From: an uncultured Acidimicrobiales bacterium
GTDB taxonomy: Bacteria > Actinomycetota > Acidimicrobiia > Acidimicrobiales > SZUA-35
Assembly: GCA_963775125.1 (NCBI GenBank)
Contig: CAVZHQ010000001.1
Location: 79,209 to 143,208 of the forward strand
Length of the DNA stretch: 64,000 nucleotides
Reading direction: 5' to 3'
The notes under the pieces are model-generated. The model was not told where the DNA came from. It was given only the letters and a program-made list of their open reading frames with translations, and did not search any database. Within the stretch, counting starts at the first letter, position 1. Every line of letters begins with the position of its first letter. Shown here one piece after another: positions 1 to 58,852 of this stretch. The position numbers were made by a program, and so were the translations under genes.

Positions 1-961
1 GGAAGAGCGGTTGGCCAGGGTCATGCCCGAGTGGGAGGGCGCCTTCTCGCTCGTCATCATCTCGGGCACGAAGGTCATCGCCGCTCGAGATCCCTGGGGC
101 TTCCGCCCGCTCTCGCTCGGCCGCCTGCCGAGCGGTGGGCATGCGGTCGCCTCGGAGACCGGGGCGCTGCGGACGCTTGGCTGCGATGCCATCAAGGAAA
201 TCGGTCCCGGTCAGATCGTCGTGCTCCAGGGCGATGTCGTCCGGACCTTGCAGGCGGTCTCGCCCAAGGAAAAACAGGCGAGGTGCACGTTCGAGCACAT
301 CTACTTCTCTCGACCCGACGCCGTGTGGGACGGCCTGTCGGTCCACCAGGTTCGCCAGCGTCTCGGCGAGGAACTCGCTCGCCAGCATCCGGTCGAAGCC
401 GACATCGTCGTGCCGGTTCCGGACTCCTCGGTGCCCGCCGCCATCGGCTATTCGGCGGTTTCCGGCATCGCCTACAACGAGGCGTTCGTCAAGAACCGGT
501 ACATCGGCCGCACGTTCATCGAGCCGACCGACGAGCTTCGCCGAAGCGGCGTCGCCCTCAAGTTCAACACGCTCGAGGACAACATTCGGGGCAAGCGTCT
601 GGTCGTCATCGACGATTCCATCGTCCGTGGCACCACGTCGGGTCCGCTGATTCGCATGCTGCGCGACGCGGGAGCCCTCGAGGTGCACGTGCGCATCACC
701 TGCCCCCCCATTGCCCACCCCTGCTTCTTCGGGGTCGACATGGGGACCTACGAGGAACTCATCGCCCATCAACTGTCGGTCGCCGAGATCAACGCGCACA
801 TCGGCTCGGACAGCCTCGGTTTCCTGGAACTCGAGCGCATGATGAAGGCCATTGGTCGCGACGATGGCTACTGCAATGCGTGTTTCACCGGAAGCTATCC
901 GGTGCCGGTTCAGCTTTCGCTGGCCACCAGCAAGCAACGATTCGATGGAGTTCTCGGGTGA
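1..961 (+). CDS. purF: amidophosphoribosyltransferase, C-terminal ~316 aa (5' end outside window)
   Basis: ORF 11..961 has PRTase motifs VVPVPDSS and LVVIDDSIVRGTT, and a C-terminal CFFGVD..CNACFTG. TGA 959-961 overlaps the next start (GTGA). Confidence 0.9.
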   Translation, partial: EERLARVMPEWEGAFSLVIISGTKVIAARDPWGFRPLSLGRLPSGGHAVASETGALRTLGCDAIKEIGPGQIVVLQGDVVRTLQAVSPKEKQARCTFEHIYFSRPDAVWDGLSVHQVRQRLGEELARQHPVEADIVVPVPDSSVPAAIGYSAVSGIAYNEAFVKNRYIGRTFIEPTDELRRSGVALKFNTLEDNIRGKRLVVIDDSIVRGTTSGPLIRMLRDAGALEVHVRITCPPIAHPCFFGVDMGTYEELIAHQLSVAEINAHIGSDSLGFLELERMMKAIGRDDGYCNACFTGSYPVPVQLSLATSKQRFDGVLG

Positions 962-3225
962 ACATTCTGTTGTTGGGCTCGGGCGGCCGCGAGCACGCCA
1001 TCGCGGTGGCGCTGCTGCGTGAACCCGATCGGCGGCTGTTCGTCGCTCCGGGCAACGCGGGAACTGCGGCGCACAACGTCGACCTGGATCTCGACGACCA
1101 TCAGGACATCCTCAACTTCTGCGAAGCCGAGCGCATCGACCTGGTGATCATCGGTCCCGAGGCCCCCCTCGTCGCCGGCCTTGCCGATGATCTGCAGGCA
1201 TCGGGCATCCCCTGCTTCGGGCCCACTGCGGCAGCGGCCCGTCTGGAAGGATCGAAGGCCTTCACCCGACAGTTCGCCAGCAGGCACGGCATTCCCGGCC
1301 CTCGATCGGCCACGTTCACCGACGTCGGCCAAGCCTTGGCCTGGCTCGACGAGGTGGGCAAGCCGGTCGTGGTCAAGGCCGACGGACTGGCATCGGGGAA
1401 AGGCGTCATCGTCCCGGCCGACCGGGTCGAGACCGAACGGGCGATCTTCGAGATGCTGTCGGGCCAGACCCTGGGAGCCGCAGGCAGCACCATCGTCCTC
1501 GAAGAACGCATGGAGGGCGAGGAGATCTCGCTCATCGGGTTCTGCGACGGCCGCACGGTCAAGGCGCTGCCTCCGGCTCAGGACCACAAGCGAGTCGGTG
1601 AGCACGACACCGGCGCCAACACCGGAGGCATGGGTGCCTTCGCTCCCGTGCCCAGTGTGAGCAACGCCCTCTGGCACGAGCTCACCGTGAGCTTTCTCCA
1701 GCGCGCGGTCGATGCCATGGCCAGCGAGGGTACGCCGTACGTAGGCATGCTGTACGCCGGACTCATGCTCACCTCCGCCGGTCCCCGGCTGGTCGAGTAC
1801 AACTGCCGGTTCGGTGATCCCGAGGCCCAGGTCTTGCTCCCGCTGCTTGCGTCCGATCTGCTCGAGGTGATCCAAGCGTGCATCGACGGTCATCTGGCCG
1901 ACGTCGACCTGCTCATCCGACCGGGCACCGCTGCGGCTGTCGTGGTTGCAGCCGAGGGCTATCCCGCCGCGCCACGGGTGGACCTCCTCGTTCCCACGGT
2001 CACGGGGACCGCTGACGCCATGGTGCTGCACGGTTCGACCAAGGTCGATCCCGCAGGCCGCGCCGTGTCGACGGGGGGCCGAGTCCTCAACGTCGTCGGC
2101 ATGGGCCAAGAGCTGGCTGCTGCCCTCGACGCTGCCTACGAGGTGGTGAACCAGATCACGATCGACGGCGCTCACCTGTTCGCCCGCTCCGACATCGGAT
2201 GGAGACACTTGCCCCGCGACCCGTACGAACAAGCCGGCGTGTCCTTGAGCGCAGGGGCGGCCACCACCGCCCGAATCGCGGCGTCGGTGAAGAGCACGCA
2301 CGATGCTCGGGTGGTCGCCGGCCTCGGAAGCTTCGGTGGCGTCTTCGACATCGCCGCGCTGGTGAAGATGGACCAACCGCTCCTGGTGGCTTCCACCGAC
2401 GGGGTGGGGACCAAGACGCTCATTGCCGAGAAGCTCGATCGTTGGGAAGGGTGCGGCGCCGACATCGTGAACCATGGGGTCAACGATGTGCTCGTGCAGG
2501 GGGCGCGGCCGCTCTTCTTCCTCGACACCGTCGCGTCCGCCACGCTGGACCCCGAGATCGTCGGCCGGGTGGTCGACGGCATGGCCGAGGCCTGCAGGAA
2601 CAACGGCGTCGTTCTCCTGGGCGGCGAGACGGCTGAGATGCCCGACGTACTGGTCGCCGGCGCCGTCGACATCTCCGGAACACTGGTCGGCGCGGTCGAA
2701 CGAGGCCGGTTGCTGCCTCGTCCTGGCATCGCGCCCGGACATGTGTTGGTCGGGTTGGCCTCTTCGGGGTTGCACACCAACGGGTACAGCCTTGCCCGCA
2801 AGGTCGTGGCCGAGCTCGACCTTCGCCAACCGCTACCCGGCGGTGACGGTGAGTCCATCGGCGACGCGCTTCTCGCGGTGCACCGAAGCTACCTGGCACC
2901 ACTGAGTGCAGCGCTCGACGCCGACCTCATCGACGGCCTGGCCCACATCACCGGAGGCGGGCTCATCGACAACCTGCCCCGCATTCTGCCCGACGGCTGC
3001 GGGGCCGCCATCGACCGCAACTCCTGGGTCGTGCCACCCCTGTTCCAATTCATCATCGCCCGCAGCGGGCTCGACCCGGTCGAGTCGCTCAATTTCCTCA
3101 ACTGCGGCATCGGCATGGTCGCGGTCGTTGCCCCCGAGAACGTCGATGCGGCCCGCGCCGCGATCCCCGAGGAAACGTGGATCATCGGACACGTGACCGA
3201 AGGCGCCGAGGTGCGCATCGGATGA
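958..3225 (+). CDS. purD-purM: fused phosphoribosylamine-glycine ligase (PurD) / AIR synthetase (PurM), 755 aa
   Basis: One open frame runs from GTG 958 to TGA 3223-3225 (in-frame part of ORF 31..3225). The N-half is PurD (ILLLGSGGREHA, GLASGKGV, tail RSDIGWR). The C-half is PurM (YEQAGVS, STDGVGTK, GGETAEMP, SSGLHTNGYSL). Only HLPRD lies between the halves and there is no stop. Confidence 0.8.
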   Translation: MNILLLGSGGREHAIAVALLREPDRRLFVAPGNAGTAAHNVDLDLDDHQDILNFCEAERIDLVIIGPEAPLVAGLADDLQASGIPCFGPTAAAARLEGSKAFTRQFASRHGIPGPRSATFTDVGQALAWLDEVGKPVVVKADGLASGKGVIVPADRVETERAIFEMLSGQTLGAAGSTIVLEERMEGEEISLIGFCDGRTVKALPPAQDHKRVGEHDTGANTGGMGAFAPVPSVSNALWHELTVSFLQRAVDAMASEGTPYVGMLYAGLMLTSAGPRLVEYNCRFGDPEAQVLLPLLASDLLEVIQACIDGHLADVDLLIRPGTAAAVVVAAEGYPAAPRVDLLVPTVTGTADAMVLHGSTKVDPAGRAVSTGGRVLNVVGMGQELAAALDAAYEVVNQITIDGAHLFARSDIGWRHLPRDPYEQAGVSLSAGAATTARIAASVKSTHDARVVAGLGSFGGVFDIAALVKMDQPLLVASTDGVGTKTLIAEKLDRWEGCGADIVNHGVNDVLVQGARPLFFLDTVASATLDPEIVGRVVDGMAEACRNNGVVLLGGETAEMPDVLVAGAVDISGTLVGAVERGRLLPRPGIAPGHVLVGLASSGLHTNGYSLARKVVAELDLRQPLPGGDGESIGDALLAVHRSYLAPLSAALDADLIDGLAHITGGGLIDNLPRILPDGCGAAIDRNSWVVPPLFQFIIARSGLDPVESLNFLNCGIGMVAVVAPENVDAARAAIPEETWIIGHVTEGAEVRIG

Positions 3226-5416: not shown

Positions 5417-5458
5417 CGGTCACGCAGGACTGACCGTCACGCAGGACTGACCGTCACC
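5411..5458. repeat. 17-bp tandem repeat GACTGAC(G/C)GTCACGCAG x2.8 spanning the stop codons of two convergent genes
   Basis: Read directly. Contains the guaB TGA (5414-5416) and the minus-strand TGA (5439-5437). Confidence 0.9.
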
Positions 5459-7468
5459 CACGTGTCGTGGAACGCGGCGGAACCCCGGCCATCGGCGGGG
5501 ACCGTCGGGTTGGTGAGCGCGTTGACGCTCCGCCCCTGCTCGGTGTGCCGGTTCCACCAACCGAACGGCATCGACGCCAGACCCGGCTGCAGATCAGTGC
5601 TCAGCGCGGCAGTGACCGTGAGCGTGCCCCGCTCGTTGTGCACGACCACCCGAGACCCCTCGAGCACGCCGCGCGCTGTCGCATCGTCGGGATGCAGCTC
5701 GAGCCGAGGTTCGGCCGGGTCGGGCAAATGGGCCGGATCGCCACCGTAGTTGGCGTTCAAGAAGCGGAGATGCTGTTTGCGGCTGATGAGCATGAGCGGC
5801 TCGGACTCGCCCGCGGGGGTCGGCGCGGTCCCGGGACCGGGCGGGCGATGGGTCAGGGCGCCGAGATGGAGGCGGCCGTCGGTGGTCTCGGTCGGCGCAT
5901 CGACGTTGGGGCGGAAGCCGACCGGTACGCGCAGACGCTCCCAGCGGTGGGCGACCAATGATTCGAAAGTGATGCCGTCGAGCCACGGGTGACGGCTGTC
6001 GAGCAGCCCGCGAATGAGCTCCTCGTCGGACCGGGCCAGGAGCGGATCGGTCAGACCGAGTCGCTGGGCGAGAAGTCGGAAGATCTCGGTGTTCGGGCGG
6101 GCATCGCCGACCGGAGCGATTGCGCGGCTGGTTGAGCGAGAGGTAGAGGTGGCCCCACGAGATGCCGAGGTCGAGGTGTTCGAGCTGGGTGGTCGCCGGC
6201 AGGATGACGTCGGCGTAGCGCGCCGTGTCGGTCAGGAATTGCTCGATGACCACCGTGAAGAGGTCGTCCCGTTCGAGTCCGGCGATCACCTGGTTCTGGT
6301 CGGGACAGATGACCGCAGGGTTCGAGTTGTGGACGAACAGCAGATCGATCGGAGGGTCGAGGGTCGAGTTCGTCAGCACCTGGCCGAGCGCGGCCATGTT
6401 GAACCGCCGGCGCTGATCGTCGGTGGGCGGGGGAGCCGGGTAGTTGAGCGCCGTCTCGAAGTAGATCTGGGTGGAACGGGCAAGGCCACCGCCCGGGTCT
6501 CGCCATGCTCCGGTCAGCGCCGGCAGGATGGCGATCGCCCGCATGATCTCTTGACCGTTGGTCCGGTGTTCGGCACCGATGAGCGATCGCACTGCGGCCG
6601 GCCGTTCGGTGGCGAACCGACGGGCCAACCACTCGATCCGTTCCACCGAAATGCCCGTCTCTGCGGCGACTTGGTCGAGTGACAGGACGGCGGCCGACGC
6701 GACGAGTTCTTGCGACCCGGTGGCGTGTCCGTCGAGCCACTCGGGGTCGAGGAGGCCGTCGCGATGCAACACCTGCACCAAGCCGAGCACCAGGGCGACG
6801 TCACTGCCGGGTCGCACCTGGAAGAACTCGTCGGCTCGGGCGGCGGTCGGGGTGCGAACGGGGTCGACCACGATGACGCAAGCGCCACCTGCACGCGCCC
6901 GTTCGATCACGGGCCAGAGGTGCCGATTGGTGTGGTAGGTGTTGGTGCCCCACAGCACGATGGTCCGAGCTCGGTCCAAGTCCCATGGGTCGATCCCGAA
7001 CGGCTGGCCCGAGACCTCGGCCGCGCCGAGCCAGGCGGTGACACCGCAAAGGTGCCGGTGCACGTCGCTGCTCTGGAGTACCGAGAAGAATCGGTCGGCG
7101 ACGATGCCCTTCTGAATCACCCCCTGGGTGCCGTCGAACGAGTACGGCAAGATCCGCTCGGCGCGTCCCTCGTGCCGAAGTCCGTCGATACGGGCCGCCA
7201 CGAGGTCGAGCGCGTGCTCCCACGTGGTCTGCTCGAACCGCGCCGTGCCCTTCGGTCCGACACGGACCAACGGATGGAGGAGACGCTCGGGGTGGTAGAC
7301 CCGGTCGAGGTAGCGGTTGACCTTCGGACAGAGTTGGCCCTGGGTGGTGGGGTGGTCGGGGTCGCCTCTCAGCGAGACCGCTCGCCCGTTGTGGACCGTC
7401 ACGTTCCAGACGCAACTGTCCGGGCAGTCGTGGTGGCAGGATCCGGTGACCGTCAACGCCGGCGTCAA
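5437..7468 (-). pseudogene. molybdopterin (bis-MGD) oxidoreductase, frame broken by an apparent 1-nt insertion near 6118-6130
   Basis: The N-part lies in ORF 5594..7582 (CHHDCPDSC 4Fe-4S motif, ..ADVILPATTQLEH..SLNQP). The continuation AIAPVGDARPNTEIFRLLAQRLG.. is in the next frame and joins ORF 5437..5958 (MGD-binding C-domain). The span is 2032 nt, which is 3n+1. TTG start 7468 overlaps the upstream stop. Confidence 0.75.
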
Positions 7469-15040: not shown

Positions 15041-16074
15041 ATGACCCGACGACTGACCCAGTTCAGCCACGGCGCTGGTTGAGCCTGCAAGCTCGCCCCC
15101 GGCGACCTGGCGCACGTGCTGCGCCGTCTGACTCCGTCGAACGATCGTCGACTTCTGGTCGATGCAACCACTGGTGACGACGCTGCCGTCTGGCAGATCG
15201 ACGACGACCGCGCGCTTGTTGTCACCGCCGACTTCATCACCCCCCTGGTCGACGACGCCTACACGTGGGGTCGCATCGCCGCGGCCAACTCGGTGTCCGA
15301 CGTCTACGCCATGGGCGGCAGGCCGTTGCTGGCTCTGAATCTGGTCGGCTGGAACACCGAGGAACTGTCGAACGAGCTCCTCGGTGAGGTCCTGGCCGGT
15401 GCGGCTTCGATCGCGGCCGCCGCCGGCTTCGTCATTGCGGGCGGCCACACCGTCGACGATCCCGAACCCAAGTTCGGGCTGGCGGTCGTCGGTGAGGTCC
15501 ACCCGGCCCGGATCCTCACCAACGCGGGTCTGAAGCCCGGGCAGTCCCTGGTGCTCACCAAGCCGTTGGGTATCGGGATCATCTCCACTGCGCTCAAGCG
15601 AGGGCACGAGTTTGCCGCCGAGACCTTCGAGCAGGCCGTCGTCGAGATGACGCGCGCTCAACGATCATGCCGCTCGTATCGCTCTGGCCGCCGGAGCCAC
15701 CGGTGCAACCGACGTCACCGGCTTCGGGTTGCTCGGGTCATCTCGGCCGAGCCGTCCTCGAGTCACATGTCGACGCCGACCTTGACCTCGCGTCGGTGCC
15801 CTTCCTCCCAGGAGTGCGCCAACTGGCCGAGGACGGTTTCATCCCCGGCGGGTCCCAACGGAACCTGGCCCACATCAGCCCCCAGCTCGATGCCGGCCCG
15901 ATCGACGAACTGTTCCAGGTCATGCTGGCCGACGCGCAGACGTCGGGTGGTCTGGTGTTCGGCGTCGATTCGGTCGACGCCGACGCCGTGGTGGCCGAAC
16001 TCGTTGCGCTCGGTCATACGGCCGCCGTCATCGGCCGCACCCGCGTCGGATCGGGTCGGATCGTGGTCCGATGA
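15041..16074 (+). CDS. selD: selenide, water dikinase (selenophosphate synthetase); Sec (UGA) at codon 14; frame broken twice by apparent 1-nt insertions (~15655, ~15736)
   Basis: SD GGAGGTG then ATG 15041. MTRRLTQFSHGAG-TGA-ACKLAPGDL continues in frame into ORF 15116... The middle segment LNDHAARIALAAGATGATDVTGFGLLG is in a second frame, and the C-part is ORF 15667..16074 (HLGRAV..VIGRT). The span is 1034 nt, which is 3n+2. Confidence 0.85.
15080..15125 (+). promoter_or_regulatory. selD UGA-Sec codon plus candidate SECIS hairpin GGCGCA-CGUGC-UGCGCC (15109-15125)
   Basis: Read directly. The hairpin assignment is tentative. Confidence 0.5.
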
Positions 16075-16784: not shown

Positions 16785-17784
16785 ATGGCCATCTCGTTCT
16801 ACAAAGACTTCGATCCGGTGTACGGCGAAGTCACCCAGCTTGCTCCGCTCGTCCGTCGCGTCGTCGCCAAGAACGCCAACCCGTTCACCTGGAAGGGCAC
16901 CGGTGTCTACCTCGTGGGGCGCGGTGACGTCGCCGTGATCGACCCGGGCCCGACGCTCGACGAACACCTCGATGCCATCCAGGCCGCCCTCGGATCCAGA
17001 CGAACAGATCAACCACATCGTCATCACCCACACGCACACCGATCACACCGCCGGTGTACCGAAGCTTCTCGACCGCACAGGCGCCAGGACCTACGGCTTC
17101 GGCCCCCACGGCGAGGTTCCCGACAAGGACCCGCTCGAGTCCATCAGCTTCGACGAGTACTTCACCCCGGACGAGAAGGCCAAGATCGACAAGGAATGGG
17201 CCGACATGCCCGATGAGCTGAAGCGGGAAGGTCCCGACATCGAGTTCCGGCCCGACGTCCCGTTGGCCCACGGCGAATCCATCAACGGCGACGGCTGGAG
17301 CCTCGAAGCCGTGCACACGCCCGGCCACACCTCCAACCATCTCTGCTTCGCCCTGAGCGACGACGGTGACGGTCAGCGGGTGCTGTTCACCGGCGACCAC
17401 GTCATGGGCTGGGCGACCTCGGTCATCTCGCCCCCCGACGGTGACCTCTACGACTACCTGAGCAGTCTCGAGGTCCTCCTCGGTCGCGAGGACGATCGCT
17501 ACTGGCCAACGCACGGCACAGCCATCACCGACCCGAAGCCGTTCGTCCGTTCCTTCATCGAACATCGGCGCGGCCGGGAACAGCAGATCATCGCCGGGCT
17601 GGCCGACAAGAAGTCGGCGACGATCAAGGACCTCGTGCCCGCCATGTACGCCGACGTCGACAAACGACTCTGGCGCGTGGCGGCCAACTCGGTCTACTCC
17701 CATCTGCTCGCCCTGCACCGTGAAGACCGAGCCCACCCGGTCGAAGGCGACCCGTCGCTCAGCGCAACGTGGCAGCTCGTGTGA
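16785..17784 (+). pseudogene. MBL-fold metallo-hydrolase, frame broken by an apparent 1-nt insertion near 16990
   Basis: ORF 16785..17216 (..LDAIQAALG) continues as DPDEQINHIVITHTHTDH in ORF 16972..17784. The span is 1000 nt, which is 3n+1. Confidence 0.75.
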
Positions 17785-19980: not shown

Positions 19981-22900
19981 TCAGCCACCGGAAAAGTTGA
20001 ACCGGCCAACCGACGCGAATCGCAGGTCTCCGGCCTCCTCGTTCTTGACCACGGTGGGCTGCGCCCCGAGACATCGGCCGACGGCAACTCCCGACCCCGT
20101 CCATTCCCAGCACGCGGACAGATCGGTGGAGGTATTCGGTACGGCCATCGACAGGGAGGTGCCGGCGGGTGCACCCGTCAGCTGGGCCTCGAAACCGTCG
20201 TCCCATTGGCCGAGCGCCGCCGGGGGTCGGGTCCGTGCTTCGCCGAACACGTCGGACGAGTCGTCCCACGCCATGAAGTCGATCACGTCTCCATCGGTGT
20301 CGAGGAGCCACAGGTCGTCGCCGAAAGCATCGAGGACCGCCCAGGGTCGATTCGCCTCGTACGAAACGACACTCCCGGGTGCCGCGGGGAACGGCCCGCC
20401 GCCTGCGCTGCTGTCGGGATTGGTTGTCCAGACGATCACCGACTGTCCCGGGCCCAACATCACCGGGTCGAACGAGACCTGGAACGAGGTGTCGAAGGGG
20501 ATGATGGTGACCCAGAAGATGTCGTGGAGGCCGTCGACCGGGTCGAAGTCCTGGAGGCGTAGACCGTCGAGGGAGACGGGATCGCTGCTCACGTTGGTCA
20601 CCTCGATGAACTCATCGATCACGACGAACTGCTCGGACTCGGCGTACAACACCTCGGTGATGGCCAACGCGCCCGACAGACCCGATCGCCCGTACTCCGA
20701 GATCGTGAAGAGGAAGCTCGTGCTCGCCTCCGCGCCGGACGGATCGGCTACCACCAGGGTCACGGTGGACGAACTCCCCTTGGTCGACGGGTCGGCGTCA
20801 CCGGAGATGATTCCGGTGACGCCGTCGATCGAGAGCCCCGCCGGCAAACCGGTGGCGGTGAAGGTCAGCGTGTCGCCGTCTGAGTCAGAGGCCAACACCG
20901 CCAGCGAGAAGGGCACCCCGGCAGCGCCGGCCTGATCCGCCACGGCCTGGAGGACCGGTGTGTCGTTGACCCCGATGACCGTGACCGTGCCGGCACCGGC
21001 GCCGCAGAGCCCACCGGGATCGCACACCGTGTAGGTGAACGCTGCGGTCCCTACGAAGTCCGGTGGTGGCGTCCAAGTAGCCTCGGTCGTGCCGAACGTG
21101 ATCGTGCCGACAGCAAAGGTGATCCCGGTTGCCGTGAGTGGATCACCGTCGACATCGACGTCGTTGGCGGCCAACGATGCGTGGCCGATCGTCAGCGGCG
21201 TGTCCTCCAACGTGGCGAACGCGTCGGTTGCGGCCACCGGGGCGTCGTTCACCGGCGAGACGCTGATCACCCCAGTGGCCGAGGTACACAGTCCGAGTGG
21301 ATCACACGCGTCGTAGACGAAGGTGGCCGGGCCATGGAAGTTCGGCGGCGGAGTCCACACGAACGCGTCGGAATCGACGGTCAACGTCCCTGTGCCGAAC
21401 CTGAGGTCGGCAACGGTCAAGGCATCTCCGTCCGGGTCGCTGTCGTTGGCCGGCAGCGTGGCCAACAAGACGGTCACCGGCGTGTCCTCGGTTCCGGCCA
21501 CGAGGTCGTCCGCCGGAGTCGGCGGGTCGTTGACGGGAACAACCGCAATGGTGGCAACGGCAGGGCTGCAGGCAAGTGAGGGGTCACAGACTTCGTAGCC
21601 AACCGTCGCCGGGCCGTCGTAGTCGGTCGGCGGTGTCCACAAGTACCCGTCGGGGGTGGTGCGGCCGGTTCCGATACTGGAGGTCAGCCAGCGGATCGAC
21701 GGTCGGTCGCCGTCGGGATCCACGTCGTTTGCCAAAACCTGGGCGGTCAGCAGAACGAGGTCGACGTCCTCGTTGACCGAGTAGCTCTCGCCTGCAGCGA
21801 CGGGTGTGTCGTTGACGGCCAACACCGTAATGGTTGCGACGGCGGGGTCCGAACAGCCGACGGAAGGGTCACAGACGGTGTATTCGAACGTATCGGTTCC
21901 GTTGGCGTTCGGGTTCGAGGTGTAGATCGCAACCCGTTGGTGGCCGAGAGGGGCGCCGGCGGTTTCGCCTTGTCCGCTTGTCGCTGCGTCGCCCGGCGCC
22001 GCAGTCGCAGTGGCCGCGGTGAATCGGACCGAACCAAAGGATGGAGCTCGAGTAATGCTGAACACCGCCAGCCCTCCGTCGGTGGTCGCCTCGAGCGTGA
22101 CGGCGAGAGTGCTGTCCTCTGCGGTCGTGGCACGAACTGCGAACGCGGTCGGCCGAATGGGGGCGGCGGTGGTCGTCGTGGTCGAGGAGACCGTCGTTGG
22201 CGGGGTGGTCGTGCGGGGAATGGTGGTTGGTCCCACGCTCGTCGCGGGCCGTGCCGCCGTGGATGCTGTTGGCGGAAGGCTCGGAGCCGTCGTGGTCGGA
22301 GCCTGGGTCGTCGATGGTCCCTCGATGGTGATGACGGTGGTCGTTGGCTCTCCAAGCTCACCGCTCGTGGTGCTGGTGGTTGCGTTGCCGGTCGAGTTGA
22401 CGGAGGTCGTGGTCTCCTCGACGAAGGCCAGGGCCGGTGGCGGTTCCTCGGGCAGCAGGGCTCCCCCGAAGCCGCCGGTGACGAACGCCGCTCCGGCCGT
22501 CACCAGAGCGGTCACACCTGTGGCAAGCGGCGTGGCGACGGGGGCGAGGGGGACCTGGGACACGGCCGGCAGATTGGCGGCCCACGACAACGGTCCGATG
22601 GCCAGCCGGAGCCGGCCGATTCCGATGTTGAGGAAGGCGCGGGCGACGCGGGGGTCGAACTGGGTCCCGGCGCAGCGGGCAATCTCGGCTCGAGCGACAT
22701 CGGCCGGCATTGGCTTCTTGTAGGAACGGACCGACGTCATCACGTCGAAGGCGTCGGCCACGGCGACGATGCGGGCACCGAGGTGGATGTCATTGCCGGA
22801 CAACCCGAACGGATAGCCGTCGCCGTCCCATCGCTCGTGGTGCTGCGACACCGCGTTGTGCCACTCGCCGAGCCAGGGTTTCAGCGGGGCGATGAGCTTG

Positions 22901-23535
22901 TCTCCGGCCATCGGGTGAGTCTTGAGGATCTCCCATTCCGCGTCGGTTGGCCGACCGGTCTTGGTGAGGATCTCCTGGGGGACCATCAGCTTGCCGACGT
23001 CGTGCAGCAGCGACGACCAGCGGAGCTTGCTGGCCGACCGATCGTCCAGGCCCATCTCCTCGACGATGAGATCGGTGTAGGCCCGCACCCGTTCGCAGTG
23101 GCCGCGGGTCAGGCGATCGTGCACGCTGAGCGCGGCCACCATCTCGAGCATCGTGGTCGCGTAGTTGGCGTTCTGATTGAGCCGCCCTGACGCTTGGGCC
23201 TCCGCGACCCGTCGCTGGAGCTGACGGGTCGTCCCGGTCCGCAGCGCGGTCGAGAAGCGGTTCGGCGCCTGATCGGGGAAGATCAGAGACAGCTTGAACA
23301 AGGCCACGAGCGGGAGCATCCGCCGAGCGAGCGAATCCGAGGCGAGAAGCACGATCAGGCCGACGGCGAAGAGGCCGATCCACCACACGAAGACGTTGAG
23401 ACCCAGGGCGTGGGGCGGAAGCTTGCGGGCCAGAACGAAGGTGGCGACGAACGAAACCACCGTCGGAGCCAGGGTGATGAGTGCGCGGAATCGTCCAGGC
23501 CAGCGCGGGTCGGCTGGTCCAGTGAGATTCCTCAC
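19981..23535 (-). CDS. membrane HD-GYP domain protein with large extracellular cadherin-like / Ig-like / lamin-tail-like region (1184 aa)
   Basis: ORF 19981..23535. TM helices, then HDVGK..HHERWDGDGYP, another TM segment, a T/P-rich linker, about 4 repeats with NDxPVA..ANDxDxDGD, then FTATGLPAGLSIDGVTGIISG and ITEVLY..EFIEVTN. Confidence 0.8.
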   Translation of the reverse strand: MRNLTGPADPRWPGRFRALITLAPTVVSFVATFVLARKLPPHALGLNVFVWWIGLFAVGLIVLLASDSLARRMLPLVALFKLSLIFPDQAPNRFSTALRTGTTRQLQRRVAEAQASGRLNQNANYATTMLEMVAALSVHDRLTRGHCERVRAYTDLIVEEMGLDDRSASKLRWSSLLHDVGKLMVPQEILTKTGRPTDAEWEILKTHPMAGDKLIAPLKPWLGEWHNAVSQHHERWDGDGYPFGLSGNDIHLGARIVAVADAFDVMTSVRSYKKPMPADVARAEIARCAGTQFDPRVARAFLNIGIGRLRLAIGPLSWAANLPAVSQVPLAPVATPLATGVTALVTAGAAFVTGGFGGALLPEEPPPALAFVEETTTSVNSTGNATTSTTSGELGEPTTTVITIEGPSTTQAPTTTAPSLPPTASTAARPATSVGPTTIPRTTTPPTTVSSTTTTTAAPIRPTAFAVRATTAEDSTLAVTLEATTDGGLAVFSITRAPSFGSVRFTAATATAAPGDAATSGQGETAGAPLGHQRVAIYTSNPNANGTDTFEYTVCDPSVGCSDPAVATITVLAVNDTPVAAGESYSVNEDVDLVLLTAQVLANDVDPDGDRPSIRWLTSSIGTGRTTPDGYLWTPPTDYDGPATVGYEVCDPSLACSPAVATIAVVPVNDPPTPADDLVAGTEDTPVTVLLATLPANDSDPDGDALTVADLRFGTGTLTVDSDAFVWTPPPNFHGPATFVYDACDPLGLCTSATGVISVSPVNDAPVAATDAFATLEDTPLTIGHASLAANDVDVDGDPLTATGITFAVGTITFGTTEATWTPPPDFVGTAAFTYTVCDPGGLCGAGAGTVTVIGVNDTPVLQAVADQAGAAGVPFSLAVLASDSDGDTLTFTATGLPAGLSIDGVTGIISGDADPSTKGSSSTVTLVVADPSGAEASTSFLFTISEYGRSGLSGALAITEVLYAESEQFVVIDEFIEVTNVSSDPVSLDGLRLQDFDPVDGLHDIFWVTIIPFDTSFQVSFDPVMLGPGQSVIVWTTNPDSSAGGGPFPAAPGSVVSYEANRPWAVLDAFGDDLWLLDTDGDVIDFMAWDDSSDVFGEARTRPPAALGQWDDGFEAQLTGAPAGTSLSMAVPNTSTDLSACWEWTGSGVAVGRCLGAQPTVVKNEEAGDLRFASVGRFNFSGG

Positions 23536-40595: not shown

Positions 40596-41402
40596 ATGGC
40601 CGGACGAGCCGATCTTGCACACTTCCTGCGCTCCCGGCGCGAGCTTCTCCATCCGACCGATGTCGGTCTCGCTGTCGGCGCACGAAGGCGGGCCAAAGGG
40701 TTGCGGCGAGAAGAGGTGGCCATGCTTGCCGGCGTGTCCGTCAGTTGGTACACCTGGTTGGAGCAGGGCCGAGCGATCAACGCGTCGGTGGACGTGCTTG
40801 AATCGCTGGCGCGCACGCTGCGGCTCGACGAGATCGAGCGCTCGCACTTGTTGTCCTTGGCCGGACACGCGCCTCGTCCTCGTTCGTCGTCGGGGCGGCG
40901 CGAGGTGCCACCGGGCATCGCCCTGCTTCTCCGATCGCTCGATCCGTGTCCGGCCTATGTGCTCGACCCGATGTGGAATGTCCTTGCGTGGAATCGGTCG
41001 CAACAGCGGCTGTTTCCCCGGTTCGCATCGATTCCGGTGGAACAGCGAAACCTGGTGTGGATCATGTTCTGCGACGATGACGCTCGGGCGTTGATCGGCG
41101 ACTGGGATGCGGAGGCCCGACGCGTGCTCTCGCAGTTCCGGGCCGAGACCACGGCGCTACGCGACGAGCCCGAGTTCGTGGATTTCGTCGAGCGGCTGGT
41201 GGCATCGAGTGATGACTTCGCCCGATGGTGGCCGGCCCACGATGTCGGGGGATTCGTGGAACGCGAGCGCACGTTCCATCACCCCCAGGCGGGCGATCTG
41301 CGGTTCGTGACCGAGCAGCTGGTCCCGGTCGGCGATCCCGACCTCCGATTGATCGTGCATCTGGGCATCGACGGGGATTCCAGCATCGCCCGCCTGGCCT
41401 GA
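40596..41402 (+). CDS. MmyB-like helix-turn-helix transcriptional regulator
   Basis: ORF 40596..41402. XRE HTH (GLRREEVAMLAGVSVSWYTWLEQGR) plus an MmyB C-domain. Confidence 0.8.
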   Translation: MAGRADLAHFLRSRRELLHPTDVGLAVGARRRAKGLRREEVAMLAGVSVSWYTWLEQGRAINASVDVLESLARTLRLDEIERSHLLSLAGHAPRPRSSSGRREVPPGIALLLRSLDPCPAYVLDPMWNVLAWNRSQQRLFPRFASIPVEQRNLVWIMFCDDDARALIGDWDAEARRVLSQFRAETTALRDEPEFVDFVERLVASSDDFARWWPAHDVGGFVERERTFHHPQAGDLRFVTEQLVPVGDPDLRLIVHLGIDGDSSIARLA

Positions 41403-41410
41403 CCGTCGTC

Positions 41411-41466
41411 GGGCTGTGCTGTCGTTTCGGGGTGTGCTGTCGTTGGGGTGCAGTACTGTCGGTGGG
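41411..41466. repeat. degenerate ~18-bp tandem repeat GGG(C/G)TGTGCTGTCGTT.. x3
   Basis: Read directly, between the mmyB-like stop and the rhodanese SD. Confidence 0.7.
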
Positions 41467-41511
41467 TGATCCGGCGATCGGCGTCGGGACCGTGAAACAG
41501 AAGGAGGAACC

Positions 41512-41919
41512 ATGGCCATCAAGTCCGTCGAGGAGATGATTGCGGCTGCTCGAGCCGAGATCGACAATCACACGCCGGCCGAAGCCAAGCGGCGAGTGGA
41601 CGAGGAAGGGGCGTTGTTGGTCGACATTCGCGACGTCCGCGAACTCGAACGAGAAGGGGTCGTGCCCGGTGCGTTCCATGCGCCGCGTGGCATGCTCGAG
41701 TTCTGGATCGATCCGGCATCGCCGTACTTCAAACCGGTGTTCGCTGAGGATCGAGAGTTCGTCCTCTATTGAGCGGGGGGCGGGCGGACAAGTTTGTCCG
41801 CAAAGGCTCTCAAGGACATGGGACTTCCCCGGGTGTCCCATATCGTCACCGGCTTCGGTGGATGGAAAGCCGATGGCCTGCCGGTCGTCGACTACCCCAC
41901 GTGGAAGGCCGCCAAGTAG
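41512..41919 (+). CDS. single-domain rhodanese sulfurtransferase with UGA (selenocysteine) at the catalytic Cys position (135 aa)
   Basis: SD AAGGAGGA then ATG 41512. ORF 41512..41772 ends ..REFVLY-TGA. The same frame continues AGGGRTSLSAKALKDMGLPRVSHIVTGFGGWKADGLPVV.. to TAG 41917-41919. Confidence 0.8.
41770..41801 (+). promoter_or_regulatory. UGA-Sec codon plus candidate SECIS hairpin GCGGACA-AGUU-UGUCCGC (41784-41801)
   Basis: Read directly. The hairpin starts 11 nt after the UGA and has G/U in the apical loop. Confidence 0.6.
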
Positions 41920-55136: not shown

Positions 55137-57090
55137 ATGGCCACCTCGTCTCTTCCCCGGAACCGCCTCTCCACCGTCCGGCCGCGACTCACCACCCCGC
55201 TGCTCCGCGTCGACGGTGAACTTCGGCCGGCGTCGTGGGACGCGGCGCTCAGTCGGGTCGCCGACGGCTTCACCGCCGTCAAGGAACAGCACGGGCCGTC
55301 TGCGTTCGCCTTGTTCTCCTGTTCCAAGAGCACCAACGAGATGAACTACGCGGCCCAGAAGTTCAGCCGTCTGGCGTTGGGGTCGAACAACATCGACTCC
55401 TGCAACCGCACTTGACACGCTCCCAGCGTCGTCGGTCTGGCGACAGTGTTCGGTGCCGGTGGCGGTACCTGCTCCTATGAGGAGGTGGAGGAGGCTGACG
55501 TCATCCTCCTGTGGGGGTCCAACGCCCGCGAGGCCCACCCCATCTACTTCCACCATGTACTGAAAGCGCTCGACAAGGGCGGCCGGATGTACGCGGTCGA
55601 TCCTCGGCGCACCTCGTCGGCCAAGTTCGCCGACGTCTGGTTGGGACTGAACCTCGGGGCCGACGTCGCGTTGGCCAACACCATGGCCAATCACATCATC
55701 GGCCAGGGCCTGGTGAACCAGGCGTTCATCGATCACTCCACGGCTGGTTACGAGGCGTTCAAAGCAGCGGTCGCCCGCTACACCCTCGAGCGCGGCGCCG
55801 AGCTCACCGGGCTGCCGGCGTCGGTCATCGCCGAGATGGCCGAGGCCTATGCCACCGCCGGCTCGGCCCAGATCCTGTGGACCCTGGGCATCACCGAGCA
55901 CCACAACGCGGTCGACAACGTCGTTGCCCTGTGCAACCTGGCGCTGCTCACGGGCCATGTCGGCCGGTGGGGAAGCGGGCTGGTTCCGCTCCGGGGCCAG
56001 AACAACGTGCAGGGCGGCGGCGACATGGGCGCTCTGCCCAACAAGCTTCCGGGCTTCGCCGACATCGATGATCCGTCGGCTCGCGCCCGGTTCGCCGCGG
56101 TGTGGGGCGCGGAGGTTCCGCCCGACCCGGGCCTGCACCTCACGCTCATGTTCGAGGCCATGGAGGCCGGAACCATCCGGGCGGCCTACATCCTGGGGGA
56201 GAACCCCGCGGACTCCGAGGCCGACGTCGCCCATGCCCGCAAGCTGCTGGCCGGACTCGACCTCCTCGTCGTCCAGGACATCTTCCTCACCCGCACCGCC
56301 GAGCTGGCCGACGTGGTGCTTCCCGCGTCGGTGGGCTGGGCCGAGTGCGAGGGCACGGTCACCTCGTCGGAACGGCGGGTACAACGGGTGCGCCCGGCGG
56401 TTCCTCCGCCGGGCGAGGCTCGCCACGACCACGAGATTCTCGGCGAGTTGGCGCGCCGCATGGGCGTCGACTGGGGAGACCCCTCGCCCCAGGACCTCTG
56501 GAACGAAGTGCGATCGTTGTCTCCCCTCCACGCGGGGATGTCCTACGAACGACTCGAGACCGAGGGAGGGCTGCAGTGGCCGTGCCCCGATCTCGATCAT
56601 CCCGGATCCCCCTTCCTGCATGGCTGGCTGTGGGAGGCCGATCTCGGCGGTCGGCCCCCGGCACCGTTCTCGGTGGTCGAGCACGCGGGCCCGAAGGAAG
56701 AGCTCTCCGAGCAGTTCCCCCTGCGACTCACCACCGGCCGGGCCCTCGACTCGTACAACACCGGCGTCCAGTCCGGCTCGCTCGACGCCCCGATCCGCTA
56801 CGGCGATGCCATCGACGTGAACCCCCTCGACGCGTCCGCCCTCCAGGTGGTCGACGGGGAGCGCGTGCGGGTCAGCTCGCCCCGGGGCTCGGTCGAGATG
56901 CCGGTACGCGTGCAACCGGACCTGCCGGTCGGCCTCACCTTCACCACGTTCCACTTCCCCGAACTCGTCGACCTCAACGTGCTCACCAATCCCGGAATGG
57001 GATCCTCGATCCGGAACCTCGGAGTTCAAGGCTGCCGCCATTCGGATCGACAAGTTGGATCCGTCCATCGCAGGCGTGCCCCGTGTCTGA
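55137..57090 (+). CDS. fdhA: formate dehydrogenase catalytic (Mo/W-bisPGD) subunit lacking the N-terminal Fe-S domains; Sec (UGA) at 55413-55415; apparent 1-nt insertion near 56996
   Basis: ATG 55137. ..NIDSCNRT-TGA-HAPSVVGLATVFGAGG.. joins ORF 54981..55415 to ORF 55446..57137 in frame. The C-terminus WDPRSGTSEFKAAAIRIDKL..V-TGA (57088-57090) is in the next frame. The span is 1954 nt, which is 3n+1. Confidence 0.85.
55413..55444 (+). promoter_or_regulatory. UGA-Sec codon plus candidate SECIS hairpin GUCGUC-GGUCU-GGCGAC (55428-55444)
   Basis: Read directly. There are 12 nt between the UGA and the stem, and the apical GGUCU is formed by the conserved Gly-Leu codons. Confidence 0.7.
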
Positions 57091-58852
57091 CCTGCACTTC
57101 ACCGCCGATCAGGCGTCGCCGGACGAGCAGGCGGTGATCGATGCCGTCCTGGCCGGGCTCGGAACCGACCCCGCCACCAGCGCAGAGGGCGAACGGGTCG
57201 TGCGGGGCGGAGTTCGCCGCCGAAACGAGCGTCGCCACGTGCTGTTGCCGGGGTTGCACGGATTGCAGCGAGCCTCGGGCTGGATCACGCCCGGAGGGCT
57301 CAACTACCTCTGCGCCCAGCTCGGGGTTCCACCGGCGGAGGCGTACGGGGTCGCCTCGTTCTACGACCTGTTCCGCACCGAGGACCCTGGTCACACCGAT
57401 TCGGTCCACCACGTCTGCATCGACGCGGCGTGCCAGATTGCCGGCGCCGACGACCGAATCGCCGAACTGGAAGCGGCCGGCCATCACGTGCATCGCAGCC
57501 CGTGCCTCGGCCAGTGCGAGCGGCCGGTCGCAGTCTTCGTCCAAGGGCGAGGTCGTGAGGACGCGGTCCCGATCGATGAGTCGGAGCCCACGGGATCAGG
57601 CAGTATTCCGCAGCGGTACGATCCCTCGCTCGTCCTGCTGGCTCGGGTCGGACGGGTCGAACCCACCTCGCTCGAGTCCTACGTCGGCGCCGGTGGCTAC
57701 AAGGCCCTGGCCAAGGCATTCACGCGGGGCGCCGGCGGCGTGATCGACGAGATCCTCGCGTCGGGCCTCAGCGGGCGTGGCGGCGCTGCATTCCCGACCG
57801 GCGTCAAACTGCGGGCGGTCGCCGCCGAGCCTGGCCCCCGCTACGTGGTGGCCAACGCCGACGAGTCCGAGCCGGGAACCTTCAAGGACCGGATCGTGAT
57901 GGAGAACGATCCGTTCGCCGTGATCGAGGCCCTGACCATCGCCGGCTTTGCCGTGGGCGCAAGCAAGGGCTGGATCTACATCCGGGGCGAGTACCCGCTG
58001 GCGACCCGGCGGCTGCAGGGAGCAATCGACGCTGCCCGCGAGGCGGGCTTTCTCGGTGAACGCATCGCCCGGTCGTCGTTCTCGTTCGACATCGAGATCC
58101 GTCGGGGGGCCGGCGCCTACATCTGTGGCGAGGAGACGGCGCTGTTCAACTCACTCGAGGGTTTCCGGGGCGAGCCTCGCCAGAAACCTCCGTTCCCGAC
58201 GACCCACGGTCTGTTCGGTCGTCCGACTGCGGTGAACAACCCGGAGACACTGCTCAACCTGCTCGAGATCGTCACCAACGGTGGAGACGCCTACGCGGCC
58301 ATCGGGACCGAGGGATCGAAGGGGCGCAAGCTGTTCTGCGTGTCGGGCAACGTGAAGACGCCGGGACTCTACGAAGTGCCGTTCGGGCCCACCCTCCGAG
58401 ACATCCTCGACCTCGCCGGCGGGGTCGACGGCGAGTTGCAGGCGGTTCTGCTCGGCGGTGCCGCCGGCTCGTTCGTCACGCCCGACCAACTCGACGTCCC
58501 CTTGACCTTCGAGGGCACCCGGGCGGCGGGACTCTCGCTGGGTTCAGGCGTCGTCATGGCCTTCAACCGATCGGTCGATCTGGCCGCGGTGGTGACCCGC
58601 ATCGCCGAGTTCTTCCGGGACGAATCCTGCGGACAATGCGTGCCATGCCGAGTCGGTGCGGTCCGCCAACACGAGCTCCTCGTCCGAACCGGCACCCGAC
58701 TCACCCCACCCGACCTCGTGCTGCTCGACGACATGGACCGGGCCATGAAGGACGCGTCCATCTGTGGTCTCGGCCACACGGCGTGCACCGCCGTCCGTTC
58801 GGCGTTGTCGCTCGGGCTCCTCGAAACACCTGCCAACGGAGGCCCGCAATGA
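57083..58852 (+). CDS. NuoE-like (2Fe-2S) fused to NuoF-like (FMN/NAD, 4Fe-4S) diaphorase subunit of NAD-dependent formate dehydrogenase
   Basis: In-frame part of ORF 56102..58852 from GTG 57083. NuoE Cys motif region (CIDAAC..CLGQC). NuoF motifs GRGGAAFPTG, ESEPGTFKDR and ESCGQCVPCR. Confidence 0.85.
   Translation: MSDLHFTADQASPDEQAVIDAVLAGLGTDPATSAEGERVVRGGVRRRNERRHVLLPGLHGLQRASGWITPGGLNYLCAQLGVPPAEAYGVASFYDLFRTEDPGHTDSVHHVCIDAACQIAGADDRIAELEAAGHHVHRSPCLGQCERPVAVFVQGRGREDAVPIDESEPTGSGSIPQRYDPSLVLLARVGRVEPTSLESYVGAGGYKALAKAFTRGAGGVIDEILASGLSGRGGAAFPTGVKLRAVAAEPGPRYVVANADESEPGTFKDRIVMENDPFAVIEALTIAGFAVGASKGWIYIRGEYPLATRRLQGAIDAAREAGFLGERIARSSFSFDIEIRRGAGAYICGEETALFNSLEGFRGEPRQKPPFPTTHGLFGRPTAVNNPETLLNLLEIVTNGGDAYAAIGTEGSKGRKLFCVSGNVKTPGLYEVPFGPTLRDILDLAGGVDGELQAVLLGGAAGSFVTPDQLDVPLTFEGTRAAGLSLGSGVVMAFNRSVDLAAVVTRIAEFFRDESCGQCVPCRVGAVRQHELLVRTGTRLTPPDLVLLDDMDRAMKDASICGLGHTACTAVRSALSLGLLETPANGGPQ

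Follow-up and report, generated by a model that had tools for sequence, protein, structure and literature searches.

The locus described here raises the question whether a gene interrupted by an in-frame TGA codon yields a fragment or a complete selenoprotein. It encodes a rhodanese and lies on a 64,000-nucleotide stretch of an uncultured Acidimicrobiales bacterium (contig CAVZHQ010000001.1), called the window throughout. On the plus strand, the Shine-Dalgarno sequence AAGGAGGA was read directly at 41501-41508, and an ATG lies 3 nucleotides on at 41512. The open reading frame (ORF) starting there closes after 86 codons at TGA 41770-41772; beyond it, 48 further codons follow in frame before the true stop TAG at 41917-41919, as seen by sequence reading and translation. 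Reading through the UGA, the gene (41512-41919) encodes a single-domain rhodanese of 135 amino acids with the recoded position at residue 87. On the same strand, a spacer of 11 nucleotides (41773-41783) separates the UGA from a hairpin at 41784-41801, which consists of a stem of 7 base pairs (GCGGACA/UGUCCGC) and the loop AGUU (41791-41794). All of these elements had been described in a first-pass annotation made from the letters alone, and re-reading of the sequence found its coordinates exact. Based on sequence comparison, the gene very probably encodes a rhodanese with selenocysteine (Sec), whose incorporation at the UGA is directed by the downstream hairpin as a Sec insertion sequence (SECIS).

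First, the protein itself was considered. Using PF00581, the read-through product was matched from residue 21 to 120, corresponding to profile positions 1-101 of 102, with 59.6 bits (cutoff 22.2). The 86-amino-acid N-terminal part alone reached 28.4 bits with a match ending at profile position 67 of 102; the catalytic residue, the active-site loop and the final third of the rhodanese fold all lie beyond its end. A full domain was obtained only with the UGA read through, as the first-pass annotation had argued. In the column of the TGA, cysteine (Cys) was present in all 120 best database homologues, which were full-length (approximately 135 amino acids), 60-77% identical and mostly from Acidimicrobiales/Ilumatobacter. 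This bears out the earlier statement that the UGA replaces the catalytic Cys, and both the homologue alignment and the orthologues described below mark it as the proposed Sec codon. The translated active-site loop U-A-G-G-G-R-T belongs to the six-residue anion-binding type C-x-x-G-x-R-(S/T), not to the seven-residue Cdc25 type. It aligns with the loop CAGGLRS of 2HHG, a Cys homologue and the closest solved structure (E = 2e-37), which covers the rhodanese fold.

Is the UGA real? The identical 86-amino-acid truncated product is on record from 4 independently assembled contigs of the same species, obtained from 4 different samples. All four carry the TGA, and no indels relative to the window were found in the rhodanese region. 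Comparing the window with the most divergent of them, the strain contig L004, 17 synonymous and 0 non-synonymous differences were counted before the TGA, and 9 synonymous and 1 non-synonymous after it, showing that purifying selection acts on the last 48 codons just as it does before the TGA. For a wider view, 185,579 genomes, one per species, were scanned with a degenerate pattern demanding the TGA (D-R-E-F-I-L-x-TGA-x-x-G-x-R-S/T). The scan gave 39 places, each of which proved to be a genuine orthologue carrying the TGA at the active site, a pattern not attributable to chance. Past the TGA, 36 remain open in frame for 44-67 conserved codons before a stop; among the remaining three, two loci end with the available sequence, and in L019 the frame extends over 112 codons. 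Acidimicrobiia/Ilumatobacteraceae account for approximately 33 of the 39, among them the cultured isolate Ilumatobacter nonamiensis YM16-303, and the others derive from metagenome-assembled genomes of Verrucomicrobiales, Chthoniobacterales, SAR324, Myxococcota and Spirochaetales. In 37 orthologues, the 60 codons preceding the UGA encode protein sequences with a mean pairwise identity of 78%; for the 44 codons that follow, the value is 66%. Two of the tests named in the first-pass annotation were the presence of TGC or TGT in orthologues and the conservation downstream of the TGA. Both came out in favor of recoding, with TGA in the same-species contigs and the species-level genomes and with a downstream region that was kept between strains as well as between species.

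The hairpin was analyzed with an ungapped alignment of 66 nucleotides starting at the TGA, comprising 40 sequences. The spacer was of equal length and the hairpin core CAAGTTTG invariant in 40 of 40. Bases of the 7-base-pair stem were paired in 94% of the cells, compared to 14-44% for controls with the 3' partner slid by 1-3 columns. Two pairs covaried. The mid-stem pair 19-28 occurred as AU:25/UA:12, with a double-sided change in 12 distinct sequences, which at the protein level turns R-T-S-L-S into R-S-S-L-T. The closing pair 15-32 occurred as GC:16/AU:12, also with a double-sided change in 12 distinct sequences, where a synonymous change of Gly is combined with a change from Ala to Val. RNAalifold independently found a 5-base-pair core of the hairpin. 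Codon choice pointed in the same direction. The codons that form the hairpin are rare in this genome (ACA 4% of Thr, AGT 3% of Ser, GCA 8% of Ala, TTG 14% of Leu), and the joint probability of choosing ACA, AGT, TTG and GCA given the peptide is 1.8e-7. Across the 37 orthologues these codons are frozen (CGG 37/37, ACA 26/26, AGT 37/37, TTG 37/37, TCC 25/26), while four synonyms each are in use for Gly, Thr, Leu and Ser immediately beyond the stem. The motif GGWCAAGTTTGWCC was found exactly once per UGA-rhodanese locus and in none of approximately 85 unrelated loci. Fixed position, compensatory changes and frozen rare codons thus support the proposal of the first-pass annotation that this hairpin with G and U in its loop acts as a bacterial SECIS; binding of SelB is predicted. 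The location of the SECIS within the coding sequence places a constraint on the protein as well, in that the peptide near the loop is limited to either R-T-S-L-S or the compensated variant R-S-S-L-T.

Orthologues with Cys add a historical dimension. In the mainstream Cys forms (C-A-S-G-W-R-S-A-L and C-A-G-G-L-R-S-A-L), the codons are the ordinary high-GC ones, and such a hairpin is absent. The Cys forms nearest to the Sec clade are different: P0001 with TGT and P0028 with TGC encode G-G-R-T-S-L-S with the identical rare codons and an intact hairpin, and in P0018, another near Cys form, two hairpin pairs are being lost. In a neighbour-joining tree, the Sec forms were contiguous with only four Cys forms interleaved, and the three of these that were checked are the forms with a fossil hairpin. 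The tree is indicative only, contiguity meaning leaf order and not established monophyly. These sequences suggest that the nearest Cys forms are recent Sec-to-Cys replacements which left a decaying fossil SECIS behind. At the level of loci, the Cys orthologues (TGT/TGC) nearest to the Sec clade are located at L044:3001-3417, L045:242-658, L047:518-925 and L046:105-512; those of L044, L045 and L047 keep the complete hairpin and the rare codons, and that of L046 is starting to lose two base pairs. A separate observation concerns the UGA orthologues from outside the Acidimicrobiia. L008, L012, L021, L028 and L037 (from Verrucomicrobiales, SAR324, Myxococcota, Spirochaetales and Chthoniobacterales) have the same hairpin and are nested among Acidimicrobiia in the tree, which suggests either horizontal transfer of the gene together with its SECIS or mis-binned contigs.

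Does the organism decode Sec at all? TGA terminates 21 of the 25 Pfam-supported genes in the window and also 23 of the UGA-rhodanese orthologues. It is an ordinary stop codon here, and recoding must therefore be site-specific. Outside the rhodanese gene, supporting machinery was encountered in the form of a Sec-type selD at 15041-16074 (plus strand), identified by tblastn and translation. Its own UGA at 15080-15082 stands in the context SHGAG-U-ACK, and TGA occupies this site in 74 of 75 related SelD genes from metagenomes; the Sec-type SelD that the first-pass annotation had placed in the same window was hence recovered. A third UGA gene became apparent from Pfam matches and translation across the TGA. 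It encodes a molybdoenzyme resembling the formate dehydrogenase alpha subunit (approximately 55137-57137, plus strand), with the UGA at 55413-55415 in the classic active-site context SCNRT-U-HAPSV. By Pfam, the called ORF lacks the N-terminus, and its best NCBIfam match is TIGR01591 (Fdh-alpha). In a local fold, a hairpin with the loop GGUCU starts 15 nucleotides after this UGA. Judged from its sequence, this putative FdhA-like selenoprotein gene is independent evidence for Sec decoding by the organism. As an aside, gene callers would split it at its TGA.

All three UGA genes of the window have a GC-rich hairpin downstream with G-U in the apical loop (AGUU for the rhodanese, GGUCU for the FdhA-like gene, GUN for SelD). 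For SelD, the loop G-U was invariant in 50 of 50 distinct relatives, and the closing pair covaried between C-G and G-C. The UGA region of selD (15080-15140 in the window; loci L048-L127 among its relatives) holds two conserved downstream hairpins, both of them candidate SECIS elements: a proximal palindrome in columns 11-29, paired to 95%, and a distal 7-base-pair stem with the GUN loop in columns 30-46, paired to 97% with the closing pair CG:25/GC:18. In I. nonamiensis YM16-303 a tRNA-Sec (L025:2574-2667) was found approximately 4 kb from the UGA-rhodanese (UGA region L025:6686-6732). The genes between them encode a DUF2264 protein and a sugar-phosphate isomerase-like TIM barrel protein and are unrelated to selenium. 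A crude codon-score scan of the window for further genes with in-frame TGA returned two gene-boundary artefacts only and missed the three known cases.

Several points weigh against decoding of the rhodanese UGA as Sec. Neither selA nor selB nor selC was found in the 64-kb window, with no tRNA detected and no SelA or SelB among the scanned ORFs, and selA and selB were found neither beside selD, nor beside the rhodanese gene, nor beside the tRNA-Sec of I. nonamiensis. Of the Sec machinery, the window yielded selD, together with the FdhA-like UGA gene, and I. nonamiensis yielded tRNA-Sec. Moreover, selD is frameshifted twice in this assembly, and genuine frameshifts would leave the strain unable to produce selenophosphate. 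Taken by itself, the folding energy of the hairpin region was unremarkable (z = -1.6). Rfam yielded no SECIS match for the whole window at the gathering threshold, and for 41700-41900 at E values up to 10 again no SECIS, only a meaningless 9-bit match to REN-SRE. The suggested search with a covariance model accordingly found nothing in Rfam, while covariation within the alignment was seen at the two pairs described above, and the case for the hairpin rests on conservation, covariation and codon choice. Its conservation is in turn partly confounded by the conserved peptide that it encodes, an objection against which the frozen synonymous sites argue. Finally, catalytic mechanism and substrates are deduced by analogy, and even for the solved Cys homologue 2HHG no function is known.

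The state of selD deserves a closer look. Compared to the syntenic contig L128, 1-nucleotide insertions at 15655 and 15737 split the gene over three frames in this assembly. Relatives at 90-93% identity have an intact gene for 318 amino acids, which the frame-corrected window protein matches residue for residue across both breaks; after correction, SelD scores 369 bits on TIGR00476 (cutoff 125). The first-pass annotation was right about a Sec-type gene, and the two insertions had escaped it. Two neighboring genes are broken likewise. An insertion of 1 nucleotide at 6125 interrupts a molybdopterin oxidoreductase gene (5437-7468, minus strand) that is intact at 674 amino acids in L128, and another at 16995 shortens a metallo-beta-lactamase gene relative to L128. 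Overall, four gene-breaking 1-nucleotide insertions were counted in approximately 12 kb, three of which are an extra G or C in a run of G or C, with no other sign of decay. Since the neighboring genes show the same defect, the insertions in selD are probably consensus errors of the assembly and not the loss of a trait. Two further genes of the window are unusual. A single ORF for 755 amino acids (958-3225, plus strand) joins PurD (GARS N/A/C domains) to PurM (AIRS/AIRS_C domains), which is either a fusion unusual for a bacterium or another assembly artefact. A protein of 1159 amino acids (19981-23460, minus strand) shows an odd architecture of an HD/HD_5 phosphohydrolase, cadherin-like/Big_9 immunoglobulin-type repeats and a lamin-tail domain; its gene is absent from the syntenic L128, where serB-like and cysS adjoin.

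Other explanations for the TGA have to be weighed against recoding. If the TGA were an error of sequencing or assembly, or a fresh nonsense mutation that had turned an ordinary Cys rhodanese into a pseudogene, one substitution from TGT or TGC to TGA would suffice, and this assembly does contain errors or lesions of another kind, the 1-nucleotide insertions at 15655, 15737, 6125 and 16995 relative to the syntenic contig. These defects are, however, all insertions and never substitutions, and the rhodanese region shows no indels against four assemblies. The TGA recurs in 4 independent assemblies and in 39 species-level genomes of several phyla, purifying selection persists beyond it, and a dedicated conserved hairpin follows. 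Left with next to no probability, an error or pseudogene is effectively refuted. Alternatively, translation might simply end at the UGA, with the 86-amino-acid fragment as the product and the hairpin serving mRNA stability or pausing. Public annotation indeed calls a protein of 85/86 amino acids (WP_206537682.1 and cluster members), UGA is a normal stop in this genome, and the known inefficiency of Sec insertion makes some truncated product likely. Nevertheless, such a fragment would be without catalytic residue, active-site loop and last third of the fold (Pfam match to 67 of 102), and a region past the true stop would neither stay in frame and 66% identical in 37 genomes nor show the 9/1 ratio of synonymous to non-synonymous changes. 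The corresponding region is plainly translated in the Cys orthologues, and we consider termination at the UGA very improbable.

A more subtle possibility is that the UGA is read through with another amino acid, by near-cognate or suppressor decoding (Trp, Cys, Arg) or with Cys via the Sec pathway under selenium scarcity. Cys can be mis-inserted at Sec codons via thiophosphate when selenium is limiting, and selD looks disrupted in this assembly. On the other hand, the UGA occupies the sole position where an exchange of Cys and Sec is chemically meaningful, and it is followed by a SECIS-type hairpin with conserved loop G-U at a fixed spacing of 11 nucleotides. Furthermore, carriers of the gene possess Sec machinery in the form of a selD that itself contains a UGA, of an FdhA-type UGA gene and of tRNA-Sec, and no reassignment of the code is evident. 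Taken together, another amino acid at this site appears improbable. Similarly, the hairpin could be a by-product of the conserved peptide G-R-T-S-L-S-A with no function at the RNA level. GC-rich coding sequence folds readily, the z value is only -1.6, and a local value of -12.8 kcal/mol is attained in an unrelated Cys form. Such a by-product would not require rare codons (joint probability 1.8e-7 given the peptide) that do not vary across 37 genomes while neighboring codons employ 3-4 synonyms, nor paired residue changes that restore base pairing (T..S to S..T; G-C to A-U). In mainstream Cys forms, the peptide is R-S-A-L-S, encoded by ordinary codons, and a hairpin of this kind is missing. A mere echo of the peptide is thus about as hard to believe as termination at the UGA.

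For the preferred explanation, a Sec-rhodanese with its own SECIS, the following course of events is proposed. Translation would pass the UGA at 41770-41772 instead of stopping. The hairpin 41784-41801 would recruit SelB-GTP-Sec-tRNA(Sec) to the ribosome, Sec would be inserted at residue 87, and the final 48 residues would then be made to complete the rhodanese fold. Following general rhodanese chemistry, the selenolate of U87 in the anion-binding loop U-A-G-G-G-R-T may be charged by a donor with an atom of sulfane sulfur (or of selenium), forming an enzyme-bound Se-S(H) or Se-Se(H) intermediate, from which the atom would be passed to an acceptor. The cycle would be of the ping-pong type as in Cys rhodaneses, with Sec presumably the stronger nucleophile and the better leaving group.

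Gene context offered no pointer to donor or acceptor, as no conserved neighborhood exists. In the window, the gene is flanked by an MmyB-type regulator gene upstream and a luciferase-like oxidoreductase gene downstream, with a MaoC-like protein, an amidase and a helicase also encoded nearby. In the search for a conserved operon partner, these neighbors recurred only in the same-species contig L026 and in 0 of 38 other orthologous loci. The neighbors of the Cys orthologues were also varied and allowed no functional inference. Upstream of the rhodanese gene, an 18-nucleotide tandem repeat of 2-2.8 copies with the consensus TCGGGCTGTGCTGTCGTT is located at 41405-41450, within the 110-nucleotide gap that separates the regulator gene (40596-41402) from the rhodanese gene. 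The MmyB-type regulator could use this repeat as its operator.

A bolder proposal, which we regard as unlikely, is that the Sec-rhodanese goes beyond a faster version of a sulfurtransferase and is a dedicated selenium or sulfane carrier using a Se-Se or Se-S adduct of U87, in a lineage that switches between Sec and Cys with the selenium supply. In this role it would channel selenium, for instance by delivery to the Sec-type SelD, or sulfur towards an Acidimicrobiia-specific pathway, and repeated switching between Sec and Cys would leave fossil SECIS elements. If true, a perselenide-carrying protein with genetically encoded selenium of its own would be on record for the first time.

Independent of its metabolic role, the Sec-rhodanese described here is of interest for several reasons. 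Rhodanese selenoproteins have been on selenoproteome lists for approximately 20 years, and none has been biochemically characterized. One family is now defined by a SECIS with covariation, by its range of at least 33 species genomes of Acidimicrobiia and five other lineages, and by its Sec/Cys dynamics. The cultured carrier I. nonamiensis YM16-303 makes it experimentally approachable. A Sec/Cys pair in a sulfur-transferase, not in an oxidoreductase, is a clean system to study the benefit of selenium in persulfide chemistry. Moreover, RefSeq and metagenome gene callers cut the family at 85/86 amino acids, and a family model flagged for Sec would mend dozens of annotations.

How does the gene compare to known systems? 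Sec-rhodaneses are an established predicted class, for which a 2026 review lists five forms; earlier lists of rhodanese selenoproteins are found in PMC9312934, the 2005 Sargasso Sea survey and the 2008 Global Ocean Sampling (GOS) survey. No experimental study of any Sec-rhodanese was found in the searchable literature, in agreement with the statement in the first-pass annotation that these proteins were only predicted computationally. By description, the window rhodanese fits form 2, the COG0607/PF00581 UxxG form, with which it shares the single domain, Sec in place of the catalytic Cys and the UxxG motif (here U-A-G-G). This form, too, is predicted by bioinformatics only, and the likeness was drawn from the published description of the form, whose representative is MBM9537886.1. 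The accessible literature on form 2 reports neither a distribution in Acidimicrobiia nor the present SECIS.

Form 4, the COG2897/cd01449 UxxG rhodanese of the Sargasso Sea and GOS marine metagenomes, also carries Sec for the active-site Cys. It is, however, a two-domain TST/SseA protein with the loop U-Q-A-G-V-R-A-A, whereas the window protein has a single domain. Membership in form 4 was rejected, with 24% identity over 42 residues only (E = 0.013) in a single domain. NF041203 (rhodanese_LYCAU, form 3, CxU) and NF045694 (TsoB, form 5) are rhodanese-fold selenoproteins recognized by the NCBI pipeline. Both were tried and rejected: NF041203 gave 24.2 bits against a cutoff of 115, and the sequence here reads L-Y-U-A without a Cys two residues before the U; TsoB, a rhodanese/DsbD fusion with two Sec, gave 18.6 bits against 805, compared to a single domain of 135 amino acids with one UGA here. 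Since the family fits neither model, RefSeq truncates the I. nonamiensis orthologue and gives it as the 85-amino-acid WP_206537682.1. A further lead, the MoeB selenoprotein, was dropped, as its Sec belongs to the ThiF domain and Cys is retained in its rhodanese domain.

The nearest non-selenium relatives are RPA3614 of Rhodopseudomonas palustris (2HHG), a structural-genomics protein of unknown function, and the Acidimicrobiia Cys rhodaneses of approximately 135 amino acids. They belong to the same family with the same length and fold and share the loop C/U-A-G-G-x-R-S/T and the MLEFWIDP motif with the window protein. The differences are Cys in place of Sec and, for the mainstream members, the missing hairpin. 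Like the Sec form, these relatives are functionally uncharacterized. At the RNA level, the SECIS of Escherichia coli fdhF serves for comparison. Its minimal upper stem-loop lies 11 nucleotides after the UGA and exposes the loop GGUC with an essential G-U. The rhodanese hairpin resembles it in the 11-nucleotide spacer, in a short GC-rich stem closed by C-A/U-G and in a loop of 4 nucleotides of the type N-G-U-N (AGUU versus GGUC). It differs by a stem without bulged U and belongs to a different gene in a different phylum. A specialist for selenoproteins would not be surprised by this gene, yet would value the covariation, the fossil SECIS, the breadth within Acidimicrobiia and the cultured carrier. 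The window gene is a well-defined addition to a known, uncharacterized class of predicted selenoproteins and not a new kind of system.

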